Notes: generated by a model from the sequence alone, not told the origin. DNA of 64,000 nt from Promethearchaeota archaeon (GCA_048940645.1 JBHLOI010000011.1:1-64000), one strand, 5' to 3'; counted from the first letter of the stretch, positions 28,238-63,923 are shown. Program-made: numbers and translations.

Positions 28238-28251
28238 TTTTTCTTTAAATA
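28238..28251 (+). promoter_or_regulatory. Regulon promoter TTTTTC-TTTAAATA
   Basis: Upstream of 28297; first copy of the recurrent motif in the window. Confidence 0.8.
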
Positions 28252-28296
28252 TCCTCATAACTTCACATTATTTATCATAAAAAGTACAAATTTGAG

Positions 28297-29382
28297 TTGA
28301 AAATTATGCAACTAGTAGAAGTTATAAGGGATATACAAACACGAATTCTAGAAAATCCAGATGAAATTATGAAATACATTCAAATTGGCATAAGTATCCC
28401 TATATTGCCAGAATTTTGGAAATATATGCGAAGTGATTTCGAAGAATACAATGCCAAATCGATCATTCTCGAAGAGGAAGTAGGTACAGAAACATTTGGA
28501 AAGATGACCGATAAAGTAATTGGTCATACATTAGTCTATAATGACGGTGGGGATGTCTTATTTTTTGGATTTTTTAGGGTAATCGATCATGATCCGCGAA
28601 ATATCGAGGTTTTAGTAAATAGAATAATTGAGTATGCTCGTGAAAACGATTTCACTTCGATTCGAGGCCCCATTAATGTACCCACGGTCATTTTTGGATG
28701 GGGTTTTATGGTTGAAGGGAGTAGAAAAGATTTATTTATCGGCTCACCAGTAAATCCCCCAATTTATCAGAAAATGTTCATGGAAAAGGGGTTTACGATA
28801 AAATTTCAAGAGGATAGATATTGGATGCCTGCTATGAAAATGGATCCATACCGTAATCCTGCTTTAAAAAAGAAAGGGGTAAATTTTGCAGAATATGAAT
28901 TTTCCAATCCAGGGTTAGAAGGGATGATGCAAATCAAGGATGAGTATATCGAAATCCATGCAGACTATATGCCTCCTTCGGCAAAAATTACTCCCAAAGC
29001 ATCAAAAAACTTTGATAATATTGTGGATTTCGTACATAGATATGGGACTAATTGGATGATGTGGATTGTGCGTCATAAAGCAACTGGGCAGCTTGCAGCC
29101 TGTGGTTACGTAATTCCAGATGTATTCCATAAAGACAGAAAAGGAGAACTTGACTCGATTAGCTTTCATGACTGGGTAGTCCATCCTAACCATCGTCGTA
29201 AATATCTCTCCATGCTAATGTACGGAGAAACTTCATTACGAGCAAAAGACCGAAAAACACCTCACTATATAAAACGGGGTTCATGGCCAGTGGGAGCTGA
29301 CAATATTGCCAATGCCAATGCTGCTAAAAAGATGGGCGGAAAAAAAGATAGAAGCCATGTAATATTACAATTGGAGTTATAA
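28297..29382 (+). CDS. GNAT-fold N-acyltransferase-like protein
   Basis: LFFGFF, IRGPIN, NPPIY and VHPNHRRKYL (acetyl-CoA motif A-like). Confidence 0.65.
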   Translation: MKIMQLVEVIRDIQTRILENPDEIMKYIQIGISIPILPEFWKYMRSDFEEYNAKSIILEEEVGTETFGKMTDKVIGHTLVYNDGGDVLFFGFFRVIDHDPRNIEVLVNRIIEYARENDFTSIRGPINVPTVIFGWGFMVEGSRKDLFIGSPVNPPIYQKMFMEKGFTIKFQEDRYWMPAMKMDPYRNPALKKKGVNFAEYEFSNPGLEGMMQIKDEYIEIHADYMPPSAKITPKASKNFDNIVDFVHRYGTNWMMWIVRHKATGQLAACGYVIPDVFHKDRKGELDSISFHDWVVHPNHRRKYLSMLMYGETSLRAKDRKTPHYIKRGSWPVGADNIANANAAKKMGGKKDRSHVILQLEL

Positions 29383-29430
29383 ATTAATTAGATTTTTTTT
29401 TATTTTTATTTTATTTAAATTGTTATATAT

Positions 29431-29766
29431 TCATTCTTGATCAATTTTCTCTTTTAAACCATGATAAATAGTATTAATCCTTCCTCCTATTTGTTCTAAA
29501 AATTCATTTCTTTCTTTTAGTTCTTTTAGCAACCTATCTGACGTTAAATTATGATGGGTATCATTTTCTAGCCTAACATACGAGGGGAAAAACTTTAATA
29601 GATCCTCTTTCATTTTGATACGAGATTTTAGAATATATTCTCGAAGCTGCTTCTCGCTAATCTTTCCCGAAACTGCTTGATTAATAATGAGCTTTAATTT
29701 ATAAAACTCCTCTTTTTTTAATAATACATCATCTAAAGCATCTTCTAATATGGTACTTATTTTCAT
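29431..29766 (-). CDS. Hypothetical protein, last gene of the four-gene membrane/ATPase-fold operon
   Basis: Starts 7 nt after the stop of the 1234-aa gene. Confidence 0.6.
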   Translation of the reverse strand: MKISTILEDALDDVLLKKEEFYKLKLIINQAVSGKISEKQLREYILKSRIKMKEDLLKFFPSYVRLENDTHHNLTSDRLLKELKERNEFLEQIGGRINTIYHGLKEKIDQE

Positions 29767-29773
29767 AGTATTA

Positions 29774-35072: not shown

Positions 35073-35086
35073 TATATAAAGAAAAA
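35073..35086 (-). promoter_or_regulatory. Regulon promoter TTTTTC-TTTATATA
   Basis: TATA starts 41 nt before ATG 35039. Confidence 0.8.
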
Positions 35087-36824: not shown

Positions 36825-36838
36825 TATTTAAAGAAAAA
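36825..36838 (-). promoter_or_regulatory. Regulon promoter TTTTTC-TTTAAATA
   Basis: TATA starts 31 nt before ATG 36801. Confidence 0.85.
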
Positions 36839-38368: not shown

Positions 38369-38393
38369 TTTTTCTTTATATTTAAAAGAAAAA
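38369..38393. promoter_or_regulatory. Overlapping back-to-back regulon promoters (+ TTTTTCTTTATATT; - TTTTTCTTTTAAATA)
   Basis: TTTTTCTTTATATTTAAAAGAAAAA; the minus copy precedes ATG 38334. Confidence 0.7.
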
Positions 38394-38424: not shown

Positions 38425-38438
38425 TTTTTCTTTATATA
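38425..38438 (+). promoter_or_regulatory. Regulon promoter TTTTTC-TTTATATA
   Basis: TATA starts 43 nt before ATG 38474. Confidence 0.8.
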
Positions 38439-38473: not shown

Positions 38474-38779
38474 ATGGGTGTAGAACCGTTAAAAGAAAAT
38501 GGCAACATGAAACCTATTCCAAGAAAGATTTTTAAGTGCCCATTTTGTGGATTTTTAATTGAACTTGAAGTGGATCGTACATTATTCACACGGTATGTGA
38601 GCGAAAGCCACTTTTTGTATCCCCACTTGCATATTCATGGCAATCCACTTCATGGAACCCTCTGTTATTTGGATCCTAACATGGCAATACGAAATATTGA
38701 AATTATCAGAAGTATCGAGATATTCAGGAGTTCCGATACATTCCAACAACTACTAAATAAATGCTTAAATCAGTTATAA
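38474..38779 (+). CDS. Small Zn-binding protein (CPFC + His-rich motif)
   Basis: FKCPFCG, HLHIHGNPLH. Confidence 0.65.
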   Translation: MGVEPLKENGNMKPIPRKIFKCPFCGFLIELEVDRTLFTRYVSESHFLYPHLHIHGNPLHGTLCYLDPNMAIRNIEIIRSIEIFRSSDTFQQLLNKCLNQL

Positions 38780-41319
38780 TAAAGATAGGTGAGCTTATTA
38801 CTCTTTTAAATTTTACTAAAAAAGGTGAAAATGATGTTGAGCACCATAAAGAGGAAATTTTCAATTATATCCATGACGAGCGAATTCTACGAGTATTATT
38901 TGAACAAAAAATTTTTCAGCTAAGAAATATCCAGAAAAAAGCGATTGAAAAGGGATTGTTTTTTAGAAAATCATTTCTAGTATGTGCTCCCTCAGGATCT
39001 GGCAAAACTATGATCGGAGAAATTTGCGCATTCCAAAACATTTTTAATAATTATGGAAAGTCTGTATATTTAGTCCCCTTTAAAGCCCTGGCTACAGAGA
39101 AGTATTACTATTTTAAAAAATATTATAGCAGGTTCAATGTAAATATTGAGTTATCCATAGGAGATTATGATATAGATGATTCCGTATTGGCTAAAGCAGA
39201 TATTATTATCACTACATATGAGAAAATGGATTCAATTCTTCGCAATTTTTATGATAAAGAGTGGATCCATGATATATCTACAGTGATAGTAGATGAAATT
39301 CATATCATTGGTGAGTCAGATCGAGGTCCACGACTTGAATCACTAATTGTGCGGTTAAATGAATTCTTAAATTACCCCCAAATTATCGGACTTTCAGCTA
39401 CCATAGCCAACTCTCAATTTTTTAATAGCTGGTTATCTTCATTAGGGAACAATACTACACTTATTCTATCTAATGAGCGACCTGTACCTCTACATTATCA
39501 ACTGAAAGTTACTCAAAATAAAGATTCTACCATTAAAAAAATTATTAAAAGCACGTTAGATCAAAAAGGTCAAGTGCTTGTCTTCCTAAATAAGCGAAAG
39601 TCTACCCAACAGACCTCATTTCTACTAAAAAATGTAGTAATAAATCATATTGACATAAATAATCTTGATAATTGTAAAAAATTAGAGAAATCCTTAGAGG
39701 GGATCAAGGGAGGACATAAGGAACTCAAAAAAATTGTAAAGTATGGATTGGCATTTCATCATGCTGGATTATTACCAAAAGAAAGAAAGTTAGTCGAGGA
39801 TAACTTCCGGAAGGGAATATTGAAAGTAATTTGTAGCACTACTACGTTAAGTGCTGGGATTAACACCCCTGCAAGAGTCGTGATTCTTAGGGATTTTAAA
39901 AAATACGTCATTTCTGGGCATAACATCAAAAATTTTTCAGGGTATTATGAAAATGGAGATGGTTTTTCCTATTTTAAACCCTTCTCAGCAAATCAAGTAT
40001 TTCAAATGTTAGGGAGGGCAGGTAGACCTGGACTGGATGCTGTTGGCTATGGGATTATTTTGGTAAATAATGTGGAGGAACGGAACTGGATTGAGGATAA
40101 ATATTTCCAAACTCTTTTAACTAAAGAAAGGCTTATCCCAAAGTATAATAACCTTGATTCTGGTTTGAATAAATTAAATACACTTAAAGAACAAGTGCTT
40201 TTAAGAATTTATGAGGAGGGAAATATCACAATAGATCAACTTAAATTATTTTTCGAACGTACATATTTTTGGTTTAATGTTAAACACAGAATGAATGATC
40301 AGCAAATCCCTATTGAACAATTTCTCATGATTAAGGAAATCACCCCCGAAAATATTCTCAAGCTCCATTCGGATAAGGAAAGGGTTAAAAAATTAGAATC
40401 CAAAAAAGATCAAATAAAGCTTTCGGAGATAACTAACTCTACAATCATGGGATTTATTAAAACTGCTTTTGGTGTGTTCACATGCCGATTTGATATTGAT
40501 TCTGGGATTCAATGTTCCTGTGGCTTCAAGAATGGGATTTCTGATAATTTTGCCAATGATGAGTTTGCATTTGAATTTTGCGACCATATTACCTCTTTTT
40601 TGAAATACCTCATTGATGTCCCTGATCCAAGTTTCCAGAAGTACATTTCAGACATCATACCCAAATCAATTAAAAATCAATATATTCTTAATTATTTATT
40701 CGAAAAAGGGTTAATTATAAAGAATAATAATGGGCTGATTAAATGCTCTCAATTTGGTAAATTGATTATTAGATTATATCTGTATCCCGTATCTGGAGTT
40801 CTCATTCGTCATAAATTAGAAAATTGTGCGTTAAATACTTTTCAAGAAATTATTAAAGAGGCATATGACGTTTTACGAGCAGAATATAAGGTAAGAGATT
40901 ATAAAATGCTCCAACCGATTTTAGAATGGACAGATGAGGTTCCAATTGAGGAGATTTTAGAGAGATATAATATTATGGCCGGTGATTTGCATATGATCAG
41001 AGATAATTTAGAGAGGATCATAACATTTATTGGGATTATTGCCATTCATTTAAGCGAAAATGGGTTTGATATTCAAGATGCTATGATTCGAGTATCAGAA
41101 ATGGCAGAAACTCTCAAAATTCGTATTCATTATGGGATAAAAGAAGAATTATTTGACTTAGTATTACGATTAGATAACGTGGCACGAGTGAGGGCACGTA
41201 TCTTATTTGATGCGGGATATCATACTGCTACTAAGGTGAAAAAAGAAGTTCCCTATATTTTGCATCGTAAAACAGGATTAGGTGTAAATTTATGTAAAAA
41301 AATTATCAAAGGAAAATAA
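38761..41319 (+). CDS. Ski2-like/Hel308-family helicase with SWIM zinc-finger insertion (start uncertain)
   Basis: APSGSGKT, DEIH, LSAT, AFHHAGL, QMLGRAGRPG; CSC-x19-CDH insertion; C-terminal HhH VARVRARILFDAGY. Confidence 0.9.
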   Translation: MLKSVIIKIGELITLLNFTKKGENDVEHHKEEIFNYIHDERILRVLFEQKIFQLRNIQKKAIEKGLFFRKSFLVCAPSGSGKTMIGEICAFQNIFNNYGKSVYLVPFKALATEKYYYFKKYYSRFNVNIELSIGDYDIDDSVLAKADIIITTYEKMDSILRNFYDKEWIHDISTVIVDEIHIIGESDRGPRLESLIVRLNEFLNYPQIIGLSATIANSQFFNSWLSSLGNNTTLILSNERPVPLHYQLKVTQNKDSTIKKIIKSTLDQKGQVLVFLNKRKSTQQTSFLLKNVVINHIDINNLDNCKKLEKSLEGIKGGHKELKKIVKYGLAFHHAGLLPKERKLVEDNFRKGILKVICSTTTLSAGINTPARVVILRDFKKYVISGHNIKNFSGYYENGDGFSYFKPFSANQVFQMLGRAGRPGLDAVGYGIILVNNVEERNWIEDKYFQTLLTKERLIPKYNNLDSGLNKLNTLKEQVLLRIYEEGNITIDQLKLFFERTYFWFNVKHRMNDQQIPIEQFLMIKEITPENILKLHSDKERVKKLESKKDQIKLSEITNSTIMGFIKTAFGVFTCRFDIDSGIQCSCGFKNGISDNFANDEFAFEFCDHITSFLKYLIDVPDPSFQKYISDIIPKSIKNQYILNYLFEKGLIIKNNNGLIKCSQFGKLIIRLYLYPVSGVLIRHKLENCALNTFQEIIKEAYDVLRAEYKVRDYKMLQPILEWTDEVPIEEILERYNIMAGDLHMIRDNLERIITFIGIIAIHLSENGFDIQDAMIRVSEMAETLKIRIHYGIKEELFDLVLRLDNVARVRARILFDAGYHTATKVKKEVPYILHRKTGLGVNLCKKIIKGK

Positions 41320-42317: not shown

Positions 42318-42483
42318 AAATCAATTATAAACTTCTGTCTCATAAAATAAACCATCACAAACTAATATAATATTTATGTTTTTGGTCCTCAAAGAATCTA
42401 TATTATTTTACTTTTTAAATGTATTTGTTTCCTCCTCTTTTTTTCCTTTTTATTGTTTCAAACTAGATATTTTAAGAAGGATT

Positions 42484-42792
42484 ATGAATGAATCAAAGGA
42501 ATCTGAGGAATTCGATTGGGAAGATTATATTACAAAAAAGAAATCTCCTCAAGAATTCATGATCCGAGAATTTATTGTCTATAAGAAGTTAGGACAAAAT
42601 TCGAATGAATATGTGATAAAAAAATTTGATAAGACTAAGGAACAAAATCTTGAAATGTTAAACCTTATTAAAGATATTTTGAACAATGTAGCCAATCTTA
42701 CTCCTAAACAAATAATTGATTATTGTAACAGTCAAAGATACTTTATGAAACTTTATTTTAAACTAATACAGGAAGAATCTAAAAATGAATAA
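42484..42792 (+). CDS. Hypothetical protein (start revised to ATG 42484)
   Basis: The upstream part of the ORF-track call is poly-T intergenic-like; degenerate motif TTTTCCTTTTTATT at 42441-42454. Confidence 0.5.
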   Translation: MNESKESEEFDWEDYITKKKSPQEFMIREFIVYKKLGQNSNEYVIKKFDKTKEQNLEMLNLIKDILNNVANLTPKQIIDYCNSQRYFMKLYFKLIQEESKNE

Positions 42793-42852: not shown

Positions 42853-42866
42853 TTTTTCTTTAAATA
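42853..42866 (+). promoter_or_regulatory. Regulon promoter TTTTTC-TTTAAATA
   Basis: TATA starts 51 nt before ATG 42910. Confidence 0.75.
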
Positions 42867-42909: not shown

Positions 42910-43170
42910 ATGAGTTCTGGAATAGTAGAAAAAGATAAGGACGTTAATGTTAAGATAGATATACAAAGTGATCTTGAGTTAGAATATATATTATCTAAAA
43001 TGATTGTTCCTTTTACATATTTTTTGGAGGTAGAGCATGAACCTGATATTTATAATGGTAAAGAGTTGATTTCTTTTTCCCAAAGACATTCGACTTATAA
43101 AGCTCTTATGCTTACAGAATTTGAAGAAGCAATAAAAAACTTTTCAAAAGTTATAAAAACAAAGAAGTAG
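42910..43170 (+). CDS. Hypothetical protein
   Basis: 86-aa ORF preceded by the regulon promoter. Confidence 0.6.
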   Translation: MSSGIVEKDKDVNVKIDIQSDLELEYILSKMIVPFTYFLEVEHEPDIYNGKELISFSQRHSTYKALMLTEFEEAIKNFSKVIKTKK

Positions 43171-43332: not shown

Positions 43333-43428
43333 ATTACACCTCATTTAGCAATTTTACTATCAAATAATTGCAGAAATATATAAATAAAAAAAATCTCTTT
43401 TTTGTAAGCAAATCCAGATGGTTCACAC

Positions 43429-43442
43429 TTTTTCTTTAAATA
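43429..43442 (+). promoter_or_regulatory. Regulon promoter TTTTTC-TTTAAATA
   Basis: TATA starts 57 nt before ATG 43492. Confidence 0.78.
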
Positions 43443-48017: not shown

Positions 48018-48032
48018 ATATAAAAAGAAAAA
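48018..48032 (-). promoter_or_regulatory. Regulon promoter TTTTTC-TTTTTATAT
   Basis: T-run after the C starts 30 nt before ATG 47996. Confidence 0.8.
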
Positions 48033-50516: not shown

Positions 50517-50530
50517 TATTTAAAGAAAAA
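50517..50530 (-). promoter_or_regulatory. Regulon promoter TTTTTC-TTTAAATA
   Basis: TATA starts 53 nt before ATG 50471. Confidence 0.78.
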
Positions 50531-50564: not shown

Positions 50565-51830
50565 CTAGATTATAAGATCTCCATTAAATTGCGGAGGCCC
50601 TTTCACTTTCCAAATGCCTAAATCAAACAACTGATTATTAATAATAACAGGTTTCTCATTCTCTTTTGATGTTGAGAAATTTTCTTCAAATAGATTTTTA
50701 ACTGCGTTTTTATTTACCTCACAAGAGATAAACATTGTATTATTTTCCAAGTCTCTTAACGCATAAAAATAATATTCATTATTATCATGCGGATTGAATA
50801 TTTGCATCGCATTGCCTAATTCAATCTCGATTATTTCAGGAGCTATTTTTTCATTTTCTTTGAATTGATCTAATAATACACCAAGGTGTTCCATCACTTT
50901 TTTTAACAAATCAGCAGATCGTACCAAGCTTTTAAATCCAGGAATACGGAGGCGATTAAATATCTTTCTCTCTACTTGTTTATGAATAGTACTCATTCGA
51001 ATATTTAACCTATTACAAATATCACTTACTGTAATTGGATTTTCTGGCAAACAGAGAACAGAAATAGAGGTAGCCACTCCTACTACTACATCATCTTTAG
51101 TATTTTTAATTGAATCCCATAATCTATATAGGATTTTTTTTGATTGATAATAAAAATACATTCCCAATCCAAAATGTTCGGTTAATTCCATAATTCTCTG
51201 AAGAATATACTCTTTTCGATTTCTCTCTTTATATTCTGGCATGAATTCATTAATCTGGAGCTTAAATGCTTGAAAATCTTTTTTAGAAATTTTTGCTACA
51301 TCTAATAAAGCTCGCTCATCCACCGGTTTACATTCATATTTGTATGTGAAGTATATTACTATTGGAACCAATTTTTCAGGGCTTCTATATTTTGTACCAT
51401 GACCTAACTTTGTATGAATTTGTTTAAAGTTCTTTAAGATTTTACTCTTATCTGTAGCTGGGAGAGAAAGAGCTTCAAATATTCTGCCAATTTCAATAAT
51501 AGCTTTTATTTCTACATTTTCATCATTACTTTTAATTGAATCAATCCTATTTAACCGTTCTAATCGATATGATTGAGGATTTCGTAATCTTTCTCGTTTG
51601 AATCCAATTTTTGTTTTCCCAGGTGTGGCATATTGTAAAATATCTTCATTATAGGGCCGATGATATTGCATAATCTGGATGGGAAGCATTACTCCACAAT
51701 CTTTACAAACAAATCCAAACTCATTTTGGATTATATCTGTTGAATTACATATATCACATCTTAACGAAGTACGCATCTCAACTTTATTTAATTGAGATTT
51801 ATTATGGGTTGCCAACTTAATCACAATCAC
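50565..51830 (-). CDS. Divergent transcription initiation factor B (TFB/TFIIB) paralogue
   Basis: CDIC..FVCKDCGV Zn ribbon; RLERL linker; cyclin repeats YRSPEKLVPIVIY..VDERALLDVAKISKKDF and ITVSDICNRLNIRMSTIHKQV; C-terminal extension. Confidence 0.8.
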   Translation of the reverse strand: MIVIKLATHNKSQLNKVEMRTSLRCDICNSTDIIQNEFGFVCKDCGVMLPIQIMQYHRPYNEDILQYATPGKTKIGFKRERLRNPQSYRLERLNRIDSIKSNDENVEIKAIIEIGRIFEALSLPATDKSKILKNFKQIHTKLGHGTKYRSPEKLVPIVIYFTYKYECKPVDERALLDVAKISKKDFQAFKLQINEFMPEYKERNRKEYILQRIMELTEHFGLGMYFYYQSKKILYRLWDSIKNTKDDVVVGVATSISVLCLPENPITVSDICNRLNIRMSTIHKQVERKIFNRLRIPGFKSLVRSADLLKKVMEHLGVLLDQFKENEKIAPEIIEIELGNAMQIFNPHDNNEYYFYALRDLENNTMFISCEVNKNAVKNLFEENFSTSKENEKPVIINNQLFDLGIWKVKGPPQFNGDLII

Positions 51831-52240
51831 AAATTTTCTTAATTACTAAGTTAAAGAAGATGGGGAGTGGCCTTTTTAAATCTTATCCTCTTGATCAGAA
51901 ATGACTGATAGAATCTTTCTAATCACAAATTAGATTTTTCCACTTATGTAAAAATGGGTAAAATTTCCATTTTATCGATCACCTCCTCATGATCTGAATT
52001 GAGGAAAAGTTGATATTATCATTAAAACGTTAAAATAAAGCTAAGTTTAAATCGCAAAATTGTATTAAACCCAAGATTTAGCTAATTTGGATTAACTAGA
52101 AGATTTTAGATTTTTTACTTTTAGTAAAAGTTATTACTTTTCTTTGTGTTTAGTTTTTAGAAAGTGAAAAAAAATCCACTCCCAGTTAGCAGGAAACACA
52201 ATTAAAACAATTTTTTTGACAAAAAAAATGCACCTAGAAG

Positions 52241-52271
52241 TTTAGCAGTAGGTATACCTGCTACTGTTAAA
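52241..52271. promoter_or_regulatory. Inverted repeat/palindrome in the TFB-peptidase intergenic region
   Basis: TTTAGCAGTAG-gtatacctg-CTACTGTTAAA; contains the perfect palindrome AGGTATACCT (52250-52259). Confidence 0.5.
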
Positions 52272-52414
52272 AAAAAATTACTGGGATCAAGAAAATTAAT
52301 TGGAGAAAAACTTTCTGGAATGTAAGTTGCAAATGGAAAATCTTTTAAAGAATTTTTTAAAAACAACCCGGAAGGAATAAACTTTTAACTTTCTTCTTCT
52401 TTTTTTTTTAAAAT

Positions 52415-52428
52415 TTTTCCTTTATATA
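52415..52428 (+). promoter_or_regulatory. Regulon promoter TTTTCC-TTTATATA
   Basis: TATA starts 29 nt before ATG 52450. Confidence 0.82.
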
Positions 52429-52449
52429 ATTACACTTTATAATAGGATC

Positions 52450-53229
52450 ATGATATTCATTGATATGCTCATTTGGTTTTGTATTATTTTGACTATCTCA
52501 CTTGTTAGTCAATTGATATATCGTTATTCTAAGGGACCTATTAGAGCATTTCTGAATGTGGTTGGCTTCATTGGAGTCTTCATTCACGAATTAAGTCATG
52601 CTTTGATGTGTATAATTTTTCGAGTGCCTCTTAGGGGCTTTTCAGTGAAATTTCGCTCACATTACACCAATGAAGTTGCCCCCCATGGAAGAGTGAAAAT
52701 AGGAGAAGTGGAGCGTATATCATTTTTACAAAAGGTAATGGTATCAGTTGGTCCACTGATCATCTCTACATGGATCTTTTTATTCTGCCTTGATATAATA
52801 ACAATACAGGAAGCTGAACTTATGACCAAGATTGTCCTAGGGCTTATTATGGCGTCTCTATTAATAGGAGCAAGCCCTTCAGGGCATGATATTTACTACA
52901 TGTTTTACTCATATGGCATAGATCCACTGTATTCCACCTACCAATTGTTTCTAACAGCATTAGCTATAATTATTGTTTATTTTGGAATTGATTTTTCATC
53001 AATTGTCCTTCCCATGGAATTGTTTTACTACATTTTAGCTTTCTTTACGGTTATCGCATTCTATTTTACACTTAAATATTTTCTAAAATTTTTCTATTAT
53101 CTATACCGCCGGATATTCCACGCTTCACAGTTTACCTCTCGACAACTAACTCGTAAAAGGCATAAGCCTTATAAACCAAAAGAAGAATATTATGAGGAAA
53201 ATTATATTAAACGAGGGTATAATGAATGA
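52450..53229 (+). CDS. M50-like intramembrane zinc metallopeptidase
   Basis: GVFIHELSHAL (HExxH), SVGPL, PSGHD; multiple TMs. Confidence 0.8.
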   Translation: MIFIDMLIWFCIILTISLVSQLIYRYSKGPIRAFLNVVGFIGVFIHELSHALMCIIFRVPLRGFSVKFRSHYTNEVAPHGRVKIGEVERISFLQKVMVSVGPLIISTWIFLFCLDIITIQEAELMTKIVLGLIMASLLIGASPSGHDIYYMFYSYGIDPLYSTYQLFLTALAIIIVYFGIDFSSIVLPMELFYYILAFFTVIAFYFTLKYFLKFFYYLYRRIFHASQFTSRQLTRKRHKPYKPKEEYYEENYIKRGYNE

Positions 53230-53564
53230 AGATCTTATGTTATTTTGTCATAATTATAGCCTTCATGATGTATTTTCAGAAGGAACCGATCTATACTGTC
53301 GTAATTATAGGAATAGGGATTGGACTTTACATCTATTTTAAATCACGAAAAGGAAAGTCAGGTGTATTCGGAAAATTTCTAGGTGGTAACTCAGAAGATT
53401 CAGATGACCGTATGAATGATTTAATTTTATTTTTCATGCTCCAGCAGATGGCTACTAATTCTTCCCAGCAACATGAATCCACAAAACAACGAGAGAAAGA
53501 CAAGAAACAAGATCAAATTGATAAGATAAAGCACGAAGTTCTTGATCTTTTAGAGAGTGATTAA
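53226..53564 (+). CDS. Small membrane protein with acidic/charged C-terminal region
   Basis: Two N-terminal hydrophobic segments; overlaps the upstream stop. Confidence 0.65.
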   Translation: MKILCYFVIIIAFMMYFQKEPIYTVVIIGIGIGLYIYFKSRKGKSGVFGKFLGGNSEDSDDRMNDLILFFMLQQMATNSSQQHESTKQREKDKKQDQIDKIKHEVLDLLESD

Positions 53565-54272
53565 ATGCAAGACTTTTTATTAGAAATTAAGACCTTACTT
53601 CAATCTAGAATGCTGATATCCATTTATGGAAAATCAGGTACAGGAAAAACTTTTTTAGGCCTATATTTATTAGGTAATTTATTGACTGAAAAGGAACCAT
53701 ATCATTATCAATGTATTTGGATACAAGCCTGTGAATTTTTTCCATCAAAACGACTCTCTCAGTTATTTCAAAAAGACCTTAACAAATTACAATTTCTAAG
53801 AAATAATATTTTTATTACACCTTTGAAAAAACCATTTCTTTCTTATCAAGAACAAGCAGTTTTAATTTCCCAAATTCAACATAAAACTTTACCTCCTGAA
53901 CTGAAGGTAATAATAATTGATAATATTTCACATCATTTACGATATGAAATTTCAAAATATGAAAGTATTTCAGAAAAAGTGTTTATTCTAAATGATTTTT
54001 ATGAAAACCAACTATTTCCTTTAATTATGTATTGCCAACAAGAGAATATGATTCTCATATTAATTCATGAAGTGTCTTATAACCCAAACTTAAAAAAGAT
54101 CGTGCCATTTTTGCATAAATTATATAACCGGATTGATAGTATTAATGTTTACCTGGAAAAAAACCTATTATCTGAAAATAAGATATTACATCTTATTTAT
54201 TCTGATTATAATAATCAATTTAATTATCGTATTGAAAATCACGGCTTCCAATGGATTGAATCTCTCTTATAA
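53565..54272 (+). CDS. RadB-like RecA-family ATPase
   Basis: IYGKSGTGKT Walker A, FPSKRL, VIIIDNIS Walker B; no N-terminal HhH. Confidence 0.8.
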   Translation: MQDFLLEIKTLLQSRMLISIYGKSGTGKTFLGLYLLGNLLTEKEPYHYQCIWIQACEFFPSKRLSQLFQKDLNKLQFLRNNIFITPLKKPFLSYQEQAVLISQIQHKTLPPELKVIIIDNISHHLRYEISKYESISEKVFILNDFYENQLFPLIMYCQQENMILILIHEVSYNPNLKKIVPFLHKLYNRIDSINVYLEKNLLSENKILHLIYSDYNNQFNYRIENHGFQWIESLL

Positions 54273-54310
54273 TATTTAAAGCAAAACTGTGTTGTTTATT
54301 GATATATTAA

Positions 54311-54775: not shown

Positions 54776-54900
54776 TATAAGTTTTTACAAATTTATCAAA
54801 AATTTTAATCAGAGACTTTTTTGTTAATAATAATAATTGCGAAATAAAAATATCTGATTCAAATCTATTTAAAGCAAAAATCTCCTACTTGTTACCATTA

Positions 54901-54914
54901 TTTTTCTTTAAAAA
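54901..54914 (+). promoter_or_regulatory. Regulon promoter TTTTTC-TTTAAAAA
   Basis: TATA starts 29 nt before ATG 54936. Confidence 0.8.
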
Positions 54915-54935: not shown

Positions 54936-55316
54936 ATGGGACTCAATTCTAGTGATTCATTGAGAAAGGAAATTTGTTGTGTAATTTGTAATAAAAATAT
55001 AAAAAAAATTGACGAAGTTTTCCAACTCTCTCACAAATTAGGAATAATATGTCAAAACTGTGTGAAAGTTTTTTCTCCTGAAGATATTGAAATAATGACC
55101 TACTTATTTTTCATTTATGGGGGTTATTTTGGAAAATTCGATCAAAGAACTTTTTCCTTACCAGAGGCAATCAAATGTTTGACAAAGCAAGAATTTAATC
55201 CTAAAAACCGGATAATGATTGAAGATCTTAATGAAAGATTAGTCCATAAGGCATTATTACATGGAATTTCTCCAGTTAATCTAGTAAAAACGTTAGAAAA
55301 CTTTTTGAATAGATGA
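54936..55316 (+). CDS. Zinc-finger protein
   Basis: CVIC..CQNC. Confidence 0.65.
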   Translation: MGLNSSDSLRKEICCVICNKNIKKIDEVFQLSHKLGIICQNCVKVFSPEDIEIMTYLFFIYGGYFGKFDQRTFSLPEAIKCLTKQEFNPKNRIMIEDLNERLVHKALLHGISPVNLVKTLENFLNR

Positions 55317-55347: not shown

Positions 55348-55361
55348 TTTTTCTTTATAAA
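55348..55361 (+). promoter_or_regulatory. Regulon promoter TTTTTC-TTTATAAA
   Basis: TATA starts 56 nt before ATG 55410. Confidence 0.8.
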
Positions 55362-55409: not shown

Positions 55410-56664
55410 ATGAAAAATAGCTGATCTTAATCTTGTGAAAGGAATTAATGCTCGTCAAATAAAGTTGCTCCAAGAAAATGGCATCAGTACAGCTGAAGCT
55501 TTGGCTATGTCTCCTCATTCTATCGTATCAGATGTTGATGGTTTGGGTGAAAAAACTGCTAAAAAGCTTATTTGGAACGCTCGAAACGCATTAGGTATGA
55601 CCGAATTTACCATAGCTGAAGAAATTGATGAAAATACTGAGTATATCACCACAGGCTCTTCAGAGTTAAATCGTATTCTTGGTGGAGGAATTGCCACTGG
55701 AAAATTAACGGAGGTATTTGGACCATTTAAATCAGGAAAAACAAACCTCGCTCACACAATTGCAGTTACAATACAATTACCAGAAAAAAAAGGGGGATTA
55801 AATGCTACAGTTGCATATATAGATTCGGAAAATACGTTTGCGAAAGAAAAGATTAAACGTATCGCCAAACGATTTGGACTTGATCCTAAGAAAGTGCTTT
55901 CCAAAATCCATCATGGAAGGATTTACAGTTCTGATCATCAACAACAGATGATTGTTAAAGCAGAAGCTTTATGTAAGACTCGTGGAGTGCGATTAATTGT
56001 AGTAGATAGTTTGATGGCCCTTCTACGAAATGAATATGTGGGCATCGGGATGTTAGCTAGACGCCAAAATGTACTCAATAACATGATCCATGCCCTATCA
56101 AGAACGGCAGAGACCTATAATTGTGCAGTCTTGCTCACAAATCAAGTAGCTACAAAAATGGTAGGAATGTTTTCAGCTGATGATGCAATTGGAGGAAATA
56201 TTGTCGCTCATGGTTGTCATTTTCGAGTGATGTTCAAAACCAAAGGATTTTCTTCTAACAATTCTTTGAAACGTAGAGCTATTATTGTGGATGCCCCAGA
56301 TTTACCTCCTGAAGAATGTGAATTTTTCATAACCAGTGCTGGTATTGCTGATTCTGATCAAGTTGAAATGCCAAAATCTAAAGAAATGGATTTTCAAATT
56401 GAGGCCTTATACGAAGAATCAAATGTTAACCAAGAAGAGGCAGTTGAGTCCAATATTGAGACAGAGGAATCAGATGAAAGTGATCTTACCAGTGTAAAGG
56501 GTATTGGAAAAGGCACTGCTGAAAATTTAATGAACTACGGAATATCTAGTATCTCTCAATTAATTGAGTCTGATCCAGAGGACGTGGCATCAAAAATAAG
56601 CGGTATATCTTTAAAAAAGGTACAAGAATGGCAGGAAAATGCACGAGCAATTTTACAAACCTAA
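55410..56664 (+). CDS. radA: RadA/Rad51-family recombinase paralogue with extra C-terminal HhH domain; apparent +1 A near the start (intact ORF from GTG 55435)
   Basis: N-terminal HhH, FTIA polymerisation motif, GPFKSGKT, YIDSENTF, LIVVDS, LTNQV; acidic linker and second HhH. Confidence 0.88.
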
Positions 56665-58769: not shown

Positions 58770-58783
58770 TATATAAAGAAAAA
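58770..58783 (-). promoter_or_regulatory. Regulon promoter TTTTTC-TTTATATA
   Basis: TATA starts 54 nt before ATG 58723. Confidence 0.8.
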
Positions 58784-58857: not shown

Positions 58858-58871
58858 TTTTTCTTTAAATA
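58858..58871 (+). promoter_or_regulatory. Regulon promoter TTTTTC-TTTAAATA
   Basis: TATA starts 29 nt before ATG 58893. Confidence 0.85.
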
Positions 58872-58892: not shown

Positions 58893-59117
58893 ATGGTCTT
58901 TTTTGATTATTTTGATGGGTTCCAGACAGGAATTGAATTTTTAATCGCATTAGGATCAATTATTGGGTTATTAGGTCTAATCATGGGAATTATTTTTTTA
59001 ATTTGGGGGGGATCTAGATTGCGATACAAAATGCTTGGAGTTGTACTTGTTTCAATTGTTCTTTTAGTAATCTGTGGATTCGATACAGGATTAAAATACT
59101 TCACCATTTACCGATAA
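58893..59117 (+). CDS. 74-aa two-TM hairpin protein, VirB2/CedA1 pilin-like topology
   Basis: Gly-rich TM1, WGGSRLRYK basic loop, TM2; own regulon promoter. Confidence 0.65.
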   Translation: MVFFDYFDGFQTGIEFLIALGSIIGLLGLIMGIIFLIWGGSRLRYKMLGVVLVSIVLLVICGFDTGLKYFTIYR

Positions 59118-59504: not shown

Positions 59505-59558
59505 AATTTCCTTCCTTTTTATGATTATTGAAAGTTTGACGAACAATAACAATGAGAA

Positions 59559-59573
59559 TATTTAAAAGAAAAA
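59559..59573 (-). promoter_or_regulatory. Regulon promoter TTTTTC-TTTTAAATA
   Basis: T-run after the C starts 63 nt before ATG 59504. Confidence 0.72.
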
Positions 59574-59652
59574 CAGCATCTCTCTTTTTTTGTTTAAATA
59601 TATAGAACAATGAAAAATATCAAAACAAAGTTTATTGATAAATTGAGGTTTT

Positions 59653-59802
59653 ATGCCAGGTCTCCACGAATTTGATGAATATGTTTTATATAGTTGGCGT
59701 AATGAACAAATTAAAGAGCAAATTAAAAAAAATAAACATGTTAAGCGTATTCGTAATAAAAAAAAAAAAACGAATAAAAAATTAGAGATCGGATATTCCT
59801 AG
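59653..59802 (+). CDS. Unannotated 49-aa basic protein MPGLHEFDEYVLYSWRNEQIKEQIKKNKHVKRIRNKKKKTNKKLEIGYS
   Basis: GAGGT SD; variant motif TTTTTGTTTAAATA at 59587-59600; the C-terminus depends on a 13-A run. Confidence 0.5.
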   Translation: MPGLHEFDEYVLYSWRNEQIKEQIKKNKHVKRIRNKKKKTNKKLEIGYS

Positions 59803-59918: not shown

Positions 59919-59932
59919 TTTTTCTTTAAATA
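59919..59932 (+). promoter_or_regulatory. Regulon promoter TTTTTC-TTTAAATA
   Basis: TATA starts 29 nt before ATG 59954. Confidence 0.82.
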
Positions 59933-59953
59933 TTTTTAGTAACATTTTTTCTC

Positions 59954-60049
59954 ATGAAAGAAGATCTAATGGATATTATTGGATTAATCGCAGCATTTGG
60001 TGTATTGTTAGGATTAGGAATATGGTTTAGTCTTCTGGTATTTCTTTAG
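59954..60049 (+). CDS. Unannotated 31-aa single-TM peptide MKEDLMDIIGLIAAFGVLLGLGIWFSLLVFL
   Basis: ATG at the 29-nt spacing from the regulon promoter; one clean TM helix. Confidence 0.6.
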   Translation: MKEDLMDIIGLIAAFGVLLGLGIWFSLLVFL

Positions 60050-60161
60050 GATGATATAAAATATGGGTATTTTAATAAATTTCCCAATACTTTTCACGTA
60101 AACCCTTTCTTTTATAAATCCTAATTTTCTGTAAAGAATTTTATTTCGTTAAACCAGATAT

Positions 60162-60175
60162 TTTTTCTTTTAATA
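60162..60175 (+). promoter_or_regulatory. Regulon promoter TTTTTC-TTTTAATA
   Basis: Starts 29 nt before ATG 60197. Confidence 0.82.
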
Positions 60176-60196
60176 TATAGTATTTCTATTTACATT

Positions 60197-61297
60197 ATGG
60201 GAGTAAAATTACATAATCTTATTATCCGCAAAAAATTGGATTTTTCTGATTTAGCAGGAACCATTATTGCAATCGATGCTCCCAACATTATAATGAGTTT
60301 ATTTAATTTTGTCCGTAAAAATTCAGATGGTAGTCCTGCTGGTTTAATTTTAGATCGAACCCAACGTCCAATTTCTCATTTATATGGTCTTTTATATCGA
60401 ATTAACTTCTATTATAGTAAGAAGATTTTTCCTCTATTCTGCTTCGATGGAAAAGTATCTGAATTAAAGAAACTCATAACTAAAGACCAGTTAAACGATT
60501 ATCTATTTACTCAGAAATGGTACCAATCTGCCTTGAGGTCTGGCAATAATGAATTAGCAAGAAAAATCGCATTAAGTAAAGAGTATTTATGGCAAAACAT
60601 TATTCAAGAATCAAAACAACTCCTTAATAATCTTGGAGTACCGTATTTCGATTCTCCGGCCTCAGCAGAGTCACAATGTGCCCAGTTAGTAAGAGATAAG
60701 ATTGCTCATTATTCCAATTCCCAGGATTTTGATTCTTTAGTATTTGGGTGTCCCCACTTAGTTCAGAACATTTCAAAGTCATTACGAAGAAAAGTCCACG
60801 GAAAATGGACGTATCAGAAAATTATTCCCTATAAAATTAATTTAAAAGAGAATTTACACTCCTTAGGAATTGATCAGTTTCAGTTAGTTGATATGGTCAT
60901 CTTGATGGGATGTGATTATTTTCCTGGTGTCAGAGGAATCGGTCCAAAAAAAGCCCTTAATTTGATAAAAAAATTCCATTCTTTAGAAAAGGTAATATTT
61001 CAAGAAAAAAAAAGATATAATTTCAAAGCGCTTACTTCAGATTTAATTATTAAAATTCGAAAACTATTTTTACTTCCAGATGTGTTATCTTCATATTCTG
61101 AGATCACTTGGAACATACCAAATGTACCCCTGGTTAAATCCTTTTTATGTGAGCAGCATTTCTTAAATAAAGAGCGAGTGCAAAACAATCTCAAGAAATT
61201 CTTACGGAATTTTGAGAAGTGTAGAGAATTTTTTGTCACTCAAAAAGATAAGCCTCGTATTATTCAAAAAACATTAAATCAATACTCCTTAATTTAA
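60197..61297 (+). CDS. fen: Flap endonuclease FEN1/XPG-family paralogue
   Basis: MGVKL, IAIDA, SHLYGLLYR, FDG, SQDFDSL, GCDYFPGVRGIGPKKA, C-terminal PIP-like QKTLNQY. Confidence 0.88.
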   Translation: MGVKLHNLIIRKKLDFSDLAGTIIAIDAPNIIMSLFNFVRKNSDGSPAGLILDRTQRPISHLYGLLYRINFYYSKKIFPLFCFDGKVSELKKLITKDQLNDYLFTQKWYQSALRSGNNELARKIALSKEYLWQNIIQESKQLLNNLGVPYFDSPASAESQCAQLVRDKIAHYSNSQDFDSLVFGCPHLVQNISKSLRRKVHGKWTYQKIIPYKINLKENLHSLGIDQFQLVDMVILMGCDYFPGVRGIGPKKALNLIKKFHSLEKVIFQEKKRYNFKALTSDLIIKIRKLFLLPDVLSSYSEITWNIPNVPLVKSFLCEQHFLNKERVQNNLKKFLRNFEKCREFFVTQKDKPRIIQKTLNQYSLI

Positions 61298-61301
61298 CCA
61301 A

Positions 61302-61315
61302 TTTTCCTTTATAAA
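61302..61315 (+). promoter_or_regulatory. Regulon promoter TTTTCC-TTTATAAA
   Basis: TATA starts 62 nt before ATG 61370. Confidence 0.72.
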
Positions 61316-61369
61316 TAACCATTTTATGGAATTGGTAAACAATTCTTTTCCATTCCATATTGATGAGTT

Positions 61370-61966
61370 ATGGCAGATACTATCGCAAAAAAGTTAATGC
61401 CCACTAGTGTTTTAGTAAAAATTCTTCTTGATTTTTCCTCAAAATCTACGGTATTGAATTACCTATTCCGGAAAAAAAGTTTCGTTGATTCCCATGAAAA
61501 TATCTTAGTTCTTTCCGATTTCACTATTAATAAAATTTCCCAAGAAGTAAATGTTCCTTTTGATACAACCGAAGGAATTATTATCCAATGTTTACTTAAT
61601 ATGTTTTACTTTAAACGTGCCTTAAATTGTGTTAGATTCATATGGAACAATGATATGGAAAAACTCAGGCGGAGATTAAGGGTATATTTATATAAAGCAC
61701 ATCGAATTGCTCCTGTGTTTGATTATAAACGAGCCAGGACAAATAGTGAAACTCTCATTACATTAATGAAGAGGAGTTGCTATTTCCCGCGATTCACTAC
61801 TCAGCTTGCTTTAGTAATATATGTAACTGATGCGAATAACCAGCATAAAATCTTTGATACGCCCATTCTCCAGCGGAATCTACGAGCTTTTTGCGATTGT
61901 TCTGCATTTGCCTTTCATCGAGCAAGAAATAAGTTGAGAATAAATAATCAAGGTAAAACTTATTAG
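61370..61966 (+). CDS. Hypothetical protein with TFB C-terminal cyclin/HTH-like end
   Basis: TTQLALVIYV..ILQRNLRAFCDCSAFAFHRARNKL resembles TFB repeat 2 by eye. Confidence 0.5.
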   Translation: MADTIAKKLMPTSVLVKILLDFSSKSTVLNYLFRKKSFVDSHENILVLSDFTINKISQEVNVPFDTTEGIIIQCLLNMFYFKRALNCVRFIWNNDMEKLRRRLRVYLYKAHRIAPVFDYKRARTNSETLITLMKRSCYFPRFTTQLALVIYVTDANNQHKIFDTPILQRNLRAFCDCSAFAFHRARNKLRINNQGKTY

Positions 61967-62091
61967 ATTTTTTCTGTGCTAATGGACAACTGCTTTAAAA
62001 ACATAAAAAACATATTTATTACCAAAATTGTTATATTTTGAATTTCCTTATTTTTTTATTGATAAAATAAGACAAAAAAGAGGAATCTGAG

Positions 62092-62496
62092 TTGAAGGAT
62101 AAAATTAAGCTTACATTGCCATTAGTTACTTTAAAAATATTAAATAGTCTTTGTATTCTGTTCAGTGCATTTATATTGATAAGTACTTTAAGAGCTTTGT
62201 ATTTTCTCACTGCTGATCCTCCAGATTTACCCTGCCTTATGTGTGAGGGATGCCCCTGTCCACCTAGTGATTTTGTTATAGCCAGAAATTATTATCTTAA
62301 TTTCTTGTTCCCAACGTTGATTTTCTCAAATATAATATTGATTGCTCTTTGTATCATTTTAATTTCAATTTTGAAATTTAAATATAGCTTCCTCAAATTA
62401 ACTCTTTTTATAAAAAAGTATGGAAAAAGTGAGGATTTATTCAAAGCATATAAATCTACAATCCAATCTAATGATTTTAACCTTAAATATAGATGA
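62092..62496 (+). CDS. Two-TM membrane protein with Cys/Pro-rich loop
   Basis: PPDLPCLMCEGCPCPPS between two TMs. Confidence 0.55.
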   Translation: MKDKIKLTLPLVTLKILNSLCILFSAFILISTLRALYFLTADPPDLPCLMCEGCPCPPSDFVIARNYYLNFLFPTLIFSNIILIALCIILISILKFKYSFLKLTLFIKKYGKSEDLFKAYKSTIQSNDFNLKYR

Positions 62497-62535
62497 TTTA
62501 AGAATAATTATTCTTAGAAGTGTTTATTTAGAGTA

Positions 62536-63864
62536 TTACTTTTTCATATTTTTTAATTTTAATTTTCTCGATTTTAAAAAATTTTGAAATTCAAAATCAC
62601 TTATTTTATCTGCTTCGAGGGCTCCCGTACTTTCTAGATACTTTTTAAAATCTTTAATAAGAGAGATAACTTCTTCTTGTTTAAAATTTTCTTTAAAAAT
62701 GAAATTATTTCGCTCTAAAATAAATTCAGAATACCACCAATAAAATATGACAGTTATAAGTATAATTAGGAAATTGTTTACTAAACTAATCTGACTTTGA
62801 CTAGCATAAGTTCCTGAGATTGAACCAGCTCCAATAATCATAATGATTTGCCCTTCAAAATATAAAATTGTGAATGCAAAAAGGAAAAATGATAAATTAT
62901 TGGGAGTAAATATCTTAAATCTGAAAAGTTTACCTCCTAAACCCTTTAAGACCAAAATTGCTGTTAAAATCATTAAAAGAATGTCAATAACTACTCTGAA
63001 AAAATCGAATCCATGGATTTCTGTTACTCTTCTAAACGACCAAATGAAACTAAACGATCTATACCATAAGTAAAGCCATATAAATATGTAAAATAATGAA
63101 GAAAAAACGTTTGGCGTTTCATTTTTAATGCTTTTAATAAATAAGTTAATTACTTTATAAGAGGTTATGATTATGATAATATACATTGCTATATTCCATC
63201 CATTAAACCAATAAATTGGTTCTAATGAATCTCCTGGACTTTGAATTTCAAAATAATTTAATAATCCAAAATAAGTACTTAATTGGAACACAATTGGTAA
63301 TATTAATCCAATAGTTAAGAATACGTAACTGTATATTCTACTAATATTGGACTCTCTATTTCTAGTTATTAATATATCATTAGCTTTATTCGAAATGCTA
63401 ACCATAATTTTTCTAATAAAGAAAATCTGGATCAAATTCCACCCAAAATAAATAATAACACATGAATATGGTAGTATTATATCCCAACCTAAAAACTGAA
63501 CTGGTATTTGTGAAGAGGAGCCAAAGAAGAAATAGATTAATATTAAAATTAAGCAAATTCCAAAAGTAATCATTAGGATTGTAAGCTTTTTTATGGTATG
63601 TTTTCTTTCTTTTGAGAATATTTGAGCCTCCATTTGAGGGATCATACTAATAAACATTAAGATTAAATAAGTAAGAGTAAAGGAAATGGTTACAATCAAG
63701 ACAATATTACCGATATCCTCTTTTGGATAAAGGCTAAGAACAGTAATTACAATTATAATTAAAAAAAATAAAATCGTATAAATAATATGACTATGTTCAA
63801 ATAATCTGTGAAATCTTGTTTTAATAGTTTCTTTATCCTTTATAGTATTAATATTTTCATTCAT
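62536..63864 (-). CDS. Hypothetical multi-TM membrane protein
   Basis: About ten hydrophobic helices. Confidence 0.7.
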   Translation of the reverse strand: MNENINTIKDKETIKTRFHRLFEHSHIIYTILFFLIIIVITVLSLYPKEDIGNIVLIVTISFTLTYLILMFISMIPQMEAQIFSKERKHTIKKLTILMITFGICLILILIYFFFGSSSQIPVQFLGWDIILPYSCVIIYFGWNLIQIFFIRKIMVSISNKANDILITRNRESNISRIYSYVFLTIGLILPIVFQLSTYFGLLNYFEIQSPGDSLEPIYWFNGWNIAMYIIIIITSYKVINLFIKSIKNETPNVFSSLFYIFIWLYLWYRSFSFIWSFRRVTEIHGFDFFRVVIDILLMILTAILVLKGLGGKLFRFKIFTPNNLSFFLFAFTILYFEGQIIMIIGAGSISGTYASQSQISLVNNFLIILITVIFYWWYSEFILERNNFIFKENFKQEEVISLIKDFKKYLESTGALEADKISDFEFQNFLKSRKLKLKNMKK

Positions 63865-63909
63865 AGCTCTAATAGTTAAATTATTTCGATAATATTATTT
63901 CTAACTCAT

Positions 63910-63923
63910 TTTTTCTTTAAAAA
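63910..63923 (+). promoter_or_regulatory. Regulon promoter TTTTTC-TTTAAAAA
   Basis: TATA starts 61 nt before ATG 63977. Confidence 0.68.

Follow-up and report, generated by a model that had tools for sequence, protein, structure and literature searches.

Can a block of accessory DNA in an archaeon carry both an initiation factor and the promoters that this factor reads? The question is raised by a 64-kb stretch of DNA (GCA_048940645.1 JBHLOI010000011.1:1-64000, hereafter the window), the first part of an 82-kb contig in the 3.83-Mb metagenome-assembled genome (MAG) of a Loki-type Asgard archaeon of the Promethearchaeota, with a G+C content of 30%. Beyond ~28 kb of the window, a T-rich block ending in C and joined to a TATA box (here called T5C-TATA) lies upstream of many genes, and a divergent relative of transcription factor B (TFB) is encoded among them. 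Archaeal TFB paralogues are known, and clear differences in the DNA that they read have so far been hard to show. The second cyclin/helix-turn-helix (HTH) domain of TFB reads the upstream B recognition element (BRE) in the major groove (PMC4581349). An earlier description of the window, made from its sequence alone (the original prediction), held that the T-rich block is an alternative BRE which marks a promoter class and defines a dedicated regulon, much as an alternative σ factor would.

A T-rich element joined to the TATA box of island genes

The core motif TTTTYCTTTWWA has 25 matches in the window, compared with 2.06 expected from 100 dinucleotide-preserving shuffles of the same DNA (standard deviation 1.3; shuffle maximum 5), and 22 of these matches fall between 28.2 and 64 kb. 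Alignment of the sites shows a conserved stretch that is two bases longer, wTTTTTC-TTTAWATA, and defines the full element as a T5-C block (sometimes T4-CC) that directly abuts a classical archaeal TATA box of 8 bp (TTTAWATA); past ~16 nt the flanks of the sites are unrelated to one another. All 19 sites of the original prediction are present, with minus-strand coordinates that give the low end of the 14-mer to within 1-3 nt, and its four variants also exist (Table 1). Sites absent from that list are found in the island at 38369 (+) and 57403 (+) and, past the window on the same contig, at 65388 (+), 67895 (+) and 67960 (-).

When the genome is taken as a whole, the 12-mer form occurs 286 times, with 261 copies outside the island, of which 181 fall inside coding regions, for the most part antisense to Lys/Glu codons. 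A genome-wide background comparison had been named as a check on the predicted promoter class, and the motif proves not to be equally frequent elsewhere: 19 of the 40 copies that lie upstream of a gene and face it (within 120 nt of a called gene) are located at contig 28.2-68 kb, an island that makes up 1.07% of the genome, and they show both strand and position bias. Similarly, the island holds 17 of the 22 non-coding hits that reach a weight-matrix score of at least 18.5.

A specificity test that does not select on the T-run considered all TTTAWATA boxes upstream of genes. Boxes in the island (n=14) are preceded by T at 93-100% at positions -6 to -3 and by C at 79% at -1, whereas those elsewhere in the genome (n=455) are A-enriched upstream (54% A at -3) and carry C at 9% at -1. 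Purines at -6 to -1 number 0.21 on average in the island, compared with 3.22 elsewhere in the genome, and the island element is not a purine-rich BRE. Since the host's own leaderless-type TATA boxes are also A-rich upstream, this comparison indicates a private feature of one island rather than a second genome-wide class. The broader idea that T5C-TATA is a general promoter class of this organism therefore falls, as the element is private to a single 41-kb accessory island that runs past the window, plus a handful of satellites. What survives of the alternative-BRE proposal is its description, namely a gene-oriented block in the BRE position, directly 5' of an 8-bp TATA box, with a composition opposite to that of the usual A-rich zone; that a TFB reads this block is what we infer.

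The metabolic genes in the first 28 kb of the window had been said to lack the motif and to show purine-rich elements instead. The latter are present as written at 5002, 15616 and 23101, and the only three motif matches in this part, at 15699 (-), 22635 (-) and 26999 (+), are not promoter-like, one being inside coding sequence, one ~200 nt from the gene start that it faces, and one aimed at the 3' end of a gene.

The island element is biased in both orientation and spacing. Among the 25 island copies, 19 are positioned before, and oriented toward, a called gene of 80 aa or more; when short open reading frames (ORFs) are counted, 21 exact copies face an ORF, and the shorter 8-mer form has an orientation bias of 17 to 4. 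In 8 of 22 sites the TTT of the TATA box begins within a 3-nt window located 29-31 nt before the ATG (binomial p ~1e-7 against a uniform spread). The units concerned start at 36801, 47996, 52450, 54936, 58893, 59954 and 60197, as first described, and at contig 67930, which adds an eighth case. The remaining sites lie 41-63 nt from the ATG, often with a GGTGA-like ribosome-binding site, also as predicted. Other approaches to promoter signals were uninformative: neither the upstream regions of 17 tRNA genes nor plain k-mer enrichment gave a usable host promoter consensus in this AT-rich genome, and a scan for bacterial σ70 promoters and terminators found no enrichment, as expected.

Satellite copies outside the island include three to four strong ones on contig C12, and a single copy precedes each of three other genes, namely one for an ERCC4 nuclease on C19 (at 70 nt), a 745-aa gene on C117, and one for a class II ribonucleotide reductase (at 318 nt). 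On C12, a 15.7-kb contig (L078), four strong sites at 2762-11030 precede unannotated genes, including one for a 671-aa AAA-like protein, and this contig may represent either another small island or a part of the present one that was not assembled with it. A separate set of three near-identical T5C-TATAAA elements, each followed ~25 nt on by T4CC-TTTTTA, is found upstream of similar genes at C7:36651, C83:21016 and C119:2196 of G000, and looks like a multi-copy gene family or mobile element with the same promoter type.

A divergent TFB encoded in the island

The protein encoded by ORF 50565-51815 belongs, by profile comparison and predicted fold, to the TFB family. It has at least 374 homologues, mostly unnamed, and comprises a zinc ribbon, two cyclin folds, an altered HTH (NIRMSTIHKQVE) and a C-terminal extension of ~100 aa. 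The four cysteines of the ribbon (C25, C28, C42 and C45) are invariant in 27 homologues and the ribbon aligns with those of canonical TFBs, while the Pfam Zn_Ribbon_TF match of the island protein (E = 0.0013) falls below the cut-off. A profile of the 27 homologues matches the canonical TFBs of the genome with 98% probability (hhalign, E = 1e-13, 242 columns) from the zinc ribbon to the last helix, and matches TFIIB chains of the Protein Data Bank (PDB) weakly. An AlphaFold2 (AF2) model places helices over residues 87-315, with pLDDT values of 73-89 over most of the cyclin core, and the 40 best Foldseek matches to this model are all TFIIB, TFB or Brf chains (30 chains at E of 0.001 or less), including the Pyrococcus woesei TFB structures 1ais_B (TM 0.75, root-mean-square deviation 3.3) and 1d3u_B (TM 0.72). 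The island protein does not reach the gathering score of Pfam TFIIB (PF00382) and lies outside the 18 repeat matches, in nine genes, that this family has in the genome; it is thus a highly divergent member of the family, which profile and fold alone reveal.

The main departure from canonical TFBs lies at the recognition helix. The nine canonical TFB genes of the same genome share a last helix of the form GVTE(V/A)T(I/L)R(N/S/M)R(Y/V)K, and the residues that go with a canonical BRE (TEVT[I/L]R.RY) are missing from the island HTH, which reads RMSTIHKQV. As the alignment places NIRMSTIHKQVE at the canonical recognition helix, GVTEVT[I/L]R[N/S]RYKEL, both arginines are replaced. In addition, a conserved EYHRPY...GKTQIG.K.ER in the island protein aligns with canonical EWRAF, at the place of the B-reader/B-linker. 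A predicted complex of the host TATA-binding protein (TBP) core with the island TFB core scored 0.00, with controls not run, and weighs neither way. The canonical TFB genes of G000 are located on contigs C43, C117, C116, C86, C87, C57, C88, C42 and C36, and only one two-repeat TBP is found (C22); a single TBP repeat occurs at C83:2329-2550, within a 420-aa open frame.

The TFB gene itself lacks a T5-C element at its own promoter, which is of the canonical purine-rich type (Table 1). The arrangement of BRE and TATA box, ACTCC box and upstream palindrome is kept in 30 orthologous loci, and the palindrome is a candidate operator. The gap between the TFB gene and the divergent operon (51816-52449, 630 nt) holds the promoter and palindrome in its proximal ~110 nt, while ~51925-52400 (~480 nt) contains no called ORF.

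Co-occurrence of factor and element across Promethearchaeota

Comparative analysis of 68 loci from Promethearchaeota MAGs that encode an orthologue of this TFB (31-91% identity) shows that TTTTTC is the commonest 6-mer immediately 5' of TTTWWA in most of them; conservation in relatives had been named as a check on the original prediction. The 12-mer reaches up to 16 copies in 21 kb of these loci, compared with ~1.4 predicted from the own-genome background, and a scan for 8-mers in gene-upstream regions returns TTTTTCTT as the commonest or second-commonest word. In three TFB subgroups the forward and reverse counts of TTTTTCTT are 29/1, 39/9 and 128/38, and the metabolic flanks of the window show nothing similar. 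The motif is kept before genes even at loci where the TFB is only 40-50% identical.

A phyletic survey of 161 genomes of the class, in which the window's own genome was excluded from the family count and the factor was called found at E 1e-20 or better, showed that 97 of the 134 members of the window's family carry the factor, compared with 1 of 26 genomes from other families; as kin are not independent, these figures and those that follow are descriptive. The ratio of exact 14-mers to a reversed control is 2.10 in genomes with the factor, 1.45 in those of the same family without a detected factor, and 0.80 in other families. Factor and motif occur together (over more than 60 loci and in one family) and are absent together, and the association in whole-genome counts is imperfect.

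The recognition helix is nearly invariant in the family, (R/K)MSTI(H/Q)xQV, which leaves little room for covariation. Where the helix reads K-MSTIHRQVE, the subgroup favours TTTTCC over TTTTTC (15 versus 9), whereas the other two subgroups show the opposite preference (5 versus 19 and 7 versus 71; Fisher p = 8e-7 for sites from related, non-independent genomes). In a sister family, two closed genomes carry TFB orthologues of 411-419 aa with helices TASTVYSH and SASTVYTR, and the island of one of these (G021) contains T8-10-G-C/T-TTTTATAA at leaderless spacing. Three of the four copies of the 'ATA' form in this genome lie within 15 kb of the TFB gene, a clustering that alone is suggestive; the form T6-G-Y-TTTTWWA has no genome-wide excess in G021 (16 versus 17 controls). 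The G021 island also has a 1234-aa ORF, whose likeness to the HerA-like gene of the window is one of length alone. This pattern gives thin agreement with co-evolution of helix and element.

Several candidates met in these comparisons were set aside. Apparent T-run-CAT motifs in G016 and G013, two genomes of the sister family, arise for the most part from gene starts of the form ATG-AAA-AAA read as their reverse complement, and a G013 hit was rejected as an orthologue because it is a canonical-type TFB with an N-terminal extension. A 'GTTCTT-TATA' form in locus L059 was rejected as a promoter variant since it is part of a CRISPR array. This array (L059 8913-9600, MAG Hel_238_bin13) adjoins a paralogue of the island TFB and has a repeat that begins GTTCTTTTTTAACTAGAAATAG and spacers of ~36 nt. 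A word of ~19 nt, GGCGATTATGAAAATGCAC, which occurs 9-10 times within 40 kb of the sister-family TFB orthologue in G021 (1729001-1769000; L094/L095), is probably another repeat array.

The island as an accessory unit

The island spans ~41 kb, from 28.2 kb of the window to ~69.2 kb of the contig. It is flanked on the left by an amino-acid (carbamate) kinase-family gene (27168-28073) and on the right, after a TPR-RING gene, by an ornithine/aspartate carbamoyltransferase gene (contig 71053-71985; L001 7053-7985), which places the two flanking genes ~43 kb apart. Their homologues are separated by 67 nt in congener G113 (G113:C62:2404-4304), a 99% complete genome without the island TFB, by 1.8 kb in G117, and by TPR genes only in G142; in congener G136 the same kinase gene is found ~21 kb from an island TFB, as in the window. 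Island and factor are jointly absent from three congeners at the same chromosomal site. Because the flanking genes are near each other in congeners without the factor, the ~41 kb is an insertion or deletion unit, and the island behaves as one unit that is present or absent as a whole.

The genes of this unit encode two Hel308/Ski2-type helicases, a radical-SAM/B12 protein, a RadB-like ATPase, a FEN1/XPG-like nuclease, an OB-fold protein, an Arf-like GTPase, a prenyltransferase-like toroid protein, a four-gene membrane operon, and many ORFs without a family. The island RadA paralogue has an extra C-terminal helix-hairpin-helix (HhH) domain, and the island RadA and FEN1 are spares, since better-scoring RadA and FEN1 genes are located elsewhere in the genome. 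A 1234-aa protein of the membrane operon was likened to HerA/DUF87/TrwB ATPases by language-model features alone, which makes this likeness a lead and no more. No integrase/recombinase, capsid or packaging family was detected by Pfam among 34 island ORFs scanned, and a PHROGs scan of ten island ORFs gave one weak hit only, to a family of unknown function. Boundary repeats of the island are 12 nt or shorter, and no att-like terminal repeats were found; no tRNA gene is present; no relative of the island TFB was found among IMG/VR contigs.

A possible two-step switch and other readings

We consider it fairly probable that factor and element form a two-step switch, in which the host machinery makes the island TFB and this protein, together with TBP, reads T5C-TATA and fires ~25 units. 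In the first step, the island TFB would be transcribed from its canonical purine-rich BRE/TATA promoter by the ordinary host machinery, a step that is probably gated by a regulator bound at the conserved palindrome just upstream. In the second, the island TFB with its rewritten helix would join TBP on T5C-TATA promoters and recruit RNA polymerase, turning on together ~25 island units that include the spare RadA, FEN1, helicase and OB-fold genes, the HerA-like membrane operon and small membrane proteins; satellite genes such as that for the ERCC4 nuclease may join, and eight of the units would be leaderless. The dedicated regulon of the original prediction gains support in so far as the gene set is coherent, a TFB-fold protein is encoded in the same island, and the two travel together over more than 60 loci and one family, while its σ-like character is plausible by analogy.

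Several observations weigh against such a switch. The mild 14-mer excess (1.45) appears in same-family genomes without a detected factor, several of which are incomplete MAGs, and some factor-bearing genomes show no 14-mer excess (e.g. 3 copies versus 8 controls). The covariation of helix and element rests on one subgroup plus a weak hint of three sites from the sister family, and confidence in the AF2 model is no more than moderate (mean pLDDT 66). Nine canonical TFB paralogues in the genome could take part, and three or four island units lack the motif.

Some of these points can be turned into an alternative in which the island does have a genuine T5C-TATA promoter class, with its T5-C block recognised by another island DNA-binding protein that overlaps the BRE position (an activator or repressor) or by a canonical TFB paralogue. 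The island TFB would then have a different role, for example that of a decoy or of a co-activator comparable to Sulfolobus TFB3. Candidates for such a reader are available among the many function-unassigned ORFs and zinc-ribbon proteins of the island as well as the nine canonical TFBs, the motif excess in genomes without a detected island TFB would fit it, and the replacement of EWRAF by EYHRPY at the B-reader leaves the initiation competence of the island TFB putative. However, the canonical TFBs share one conserved helix that is suited to purine-rich BREs, no protein of the island other than its TFB has a known domain for promoter reading that would lie there, the preference for T4CC or T5C by subgroup follows the type of TFB helix, and a fixed zero spacing to the TATA box is a requirement of a TBP-anchored reader. 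We therefore regard another reader as unlikely.

Oligo-T tracts are an archaeal intrinsic termination signal, which raises the possibility that the T-run acts mainly as a stop for the upstream gene, or as a rigid tract that aids TBP bending or excludes histones, set beside each TATA box of a densely packed island with no dedicated reader. About half of the sites do follow a co-directional gene, and the equivalent sites in a sister-family genome are plain long T-runs. This explanation is weakened because about half of the sites (~10 of 21) are located between divergent genes, so that no transcript would reach them on the strand concerned, and because the C at -1 (79% conserved) and the zero distance to the TATA box are fixed; ordinary promoters of the same genome lack the tract, and the feature is limited to one island and one family. 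A mainly structural or terminator role consequently seems improbable. Finally, a compositional or repeat artefact, that is, chance matches in AT-rich DNA or a single promoter cassette that was duplicated without any shared function, might be suspected in a genome of 30% G+C where most of the 261 outside copies are antisense to Lys/Glu-rich coding sequence, but it is effectively refuted by the failure of all 100 shuffles to reach the observed count, by the strong orientation and spacing bias, by the unrelated flanks, and by retention of the motif at loci with highly diverged TFBs.

If the two-step switch operates, the island may, as a tentative extension, be a transferable and self-contained module with its own initiation factor and an orthogonal BRE, whose ~25 units (recombination genes and a HerA-like machine) would be silent to the nine host TFBs and fire only with the island TFB, perhaps for DNA import or transfer. 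The gene content (spare RadA, FEN1, helicase, OB-fold and ERCC4 genes and the HerA-like membrane operon) hints at an inducible recombination or DNA-transfer programme, and its trigger may be sought via the palindrome that precedes the TFB gene. Together, a rewritten TFB helix and a sharply different element in the BRE position would give directly testable promoter selection by an initiation factor in a TBP/TFB/Pol II-like system. Such a pair would also illustrate how genes on accessory DNA stay insulated from the transcription of their host, and its orthogonal promoter and factor would be of use in Asgard genetics.

Relation to known systems

The island element resembles canonical archaeal promoters bound by TBP and TFB (P. 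woesei, PDB 1AIS/1D3U) in having an 8-bp TATA box with an adjoining, gene-oriented 6-bp upstream element and a spacing that fits a predicted start ~25 nt downstream, and the island factor shares the zinc ribbon, two cyclin folds and C-terminal HTH of canonical TFBs. They differ in that the upstream element is T5-C rather than purine-rich, and in that the factor lacks both helix arginines, falls below the Pfam TFIIB threshold and has a C-terminal extension of ~100 aa.

Alternative TFB paralogues with their own regulons are known in haloarchaea (TfbA-G), and TFB3 of the Sulfolobales acts in the DNA-damage response. Like these proteins and TFB2, the island factor would be a paralogous initiation factor that drives a defined gene set, and the DNA-transaction theme of the island recalls the TFB3, Ups and Ced response; unlike them, factor and targets are linked on one accessory island and are present or absent as a unit. 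For Sulfolobus acidocaldarius TFB2, the BRE looks similar to that of TFB1 and only the spacing differs (bioRxiv 10.64898/2026.09.06.749720), whereas in the island the sequence in the BRE position is itself replaced.

Mobile genetic elements (MGEs) and viruses of Asgard archaea (WyrdV1, 10H_0 and 7H_42-like MGEs) carry TFB homologues that were proposed to recruit host RNA polymerase to their own genes (bioRxiv 10.1101/2021.07.29.453957). The island is likened to them by gene carriage alone, as a TFB gene on accessory DNA of Asgard archaea; it differs in that no matching promoter is described in that paper (bioRxiv 10.1101/2021.07.29.453957), that no integrase, capsid or other viral hallmark was found in the scanned island proteins, and that the TFB family was not found in IMG/VR. 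A search of the literature on Asgard TFB, BRE and promoters found no description of a T5C-TATA promoter or of this island.

As with bacterial alternative or phage σ factors, a dedicated factor made from an ordinary promoter is predicted here to redirect polymerase to promoters with another upstream anchor, and the contact of TFB HTH2 with the BRE is the structural counterpart of that of σ region 4 with the -35 element (PMC4581349). The archaeal case differs in using another protein family and polymerase and in that TBP still supplies recognition of the TATA box.

Features of the island

The putative promoters of the island, with the TFB gene and its upstream signals, are collected in Table 1.

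Table 1. Candidate promoters and related features of the island within the window (promoter assignments are putative; positions as in the window unless marked contig).
Position	Strand	Feature	Spacing	Gene or operon faced; remarks
28238..28251	+	T5C-TATA		ORF ending 29382 (island left edge); position weight matrix score 21.4
35073..35086	-	T5C-TATA		four-gene membrane operon 35039-29431, including 1234-aa HerA/DUF87-like protein
36825..36838	-	T5C-TATA	leaderless	HhH membrane protein 36801-35095
38369..38393		two motifs back to back on opposite strands		minus copy 38393-38380 faces radical-SAM/B12 gene 38334-36853
38425..38438	+	T5C-TATA		38474-38779 and Hel308-like helicase 38761-41319
42441..42454	+	variant T4CC-TTTTTA		implies true gene start near 42491
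42853..42866	+	T5C-TATA		42910-43170
43377..43390	-	variant T7-A-TTTATATA		
43429..43442	+	T5C-TATA		43492-44715
48019..48032	-	T5C-TATA	leaderless	operon 47996-44750 (194-aa protein, DEAD/ResIII helicase, Zn-ribbon protein)
50517..50530	-	T5C-TATA		prenyltransferase-like toroid protein 50471-48132, directly behind TFB gene
50565-51815	-	divergent TFB gene		likely TTG start at 51815 (M-A-T-H...), as orthologues indicate
51890-51873	-	canonical promoter of TFB gene		purine-rich BRE GAGGATAAG and TATA ATTTAAAAA, then ACTCC box
51909..51921		palindrome TAGAAAGATTCTA upstream of TFB promoter		GAGAAGA..TCTTCTC in most orthologous loci
52415..52428	+	T4CC-TATA	leaderless	operon 52450-54272 (membrane protein, 112-aa protein, RadB-like AAA ATPase)
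54866..54879	-	variant T5-GC-TTTAAATA		54775-54311
54901..54914	+	T5C-TATA	leaderless	54936-55316
55348..55361	+	T5C-TATA		RadA paralogue 55435-56664
58770..58783	-	T5C-TATA		58723-57400
58858..58871	+	T5C-TATA	leaderless	74-aa ORF 58893-59117
59560..59573	-	T5C-TATA		ORF ending 59139
59587..59600	+	variant T5-G-TTTAAATA		49-aa basic ORF 59653-59802
59919..59932	+	T5C-TATA	leaderless	31-aa hydrophobic micro-ORF 59954-60049 (29 nt, perfect element)
60162..60175	+	T5C-TATA	leaderless	FEN1/XPG-like nuclease 60197-61297
61302..61315	+	T4CC-TATA		61370-61966
63910..63923	+	T5C-TATA		OB-fold (RPA/SSB-like) gene, contig 64085-64897

Three observations on individual sites may be added. The pair at 38369-38393 forms an inverted repeat (TTTTTCTTTATAT / TTAAAAGAAAAA), with its plus copy 105 nt from the next gene and a second plus copy (38425) in between, and may act as a promoter in both directions or in tandem. 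Both the 31-aa and the 49-aa ORF in Table 1 would escape ordinary gene callers. Lastly, T4-GC-TTTAAATA at 54271-54288 (-) is positioned between two convergent genes, antisense into the RadB-like operon, and is either a chance match or a possible promoter of an antisense RNA.

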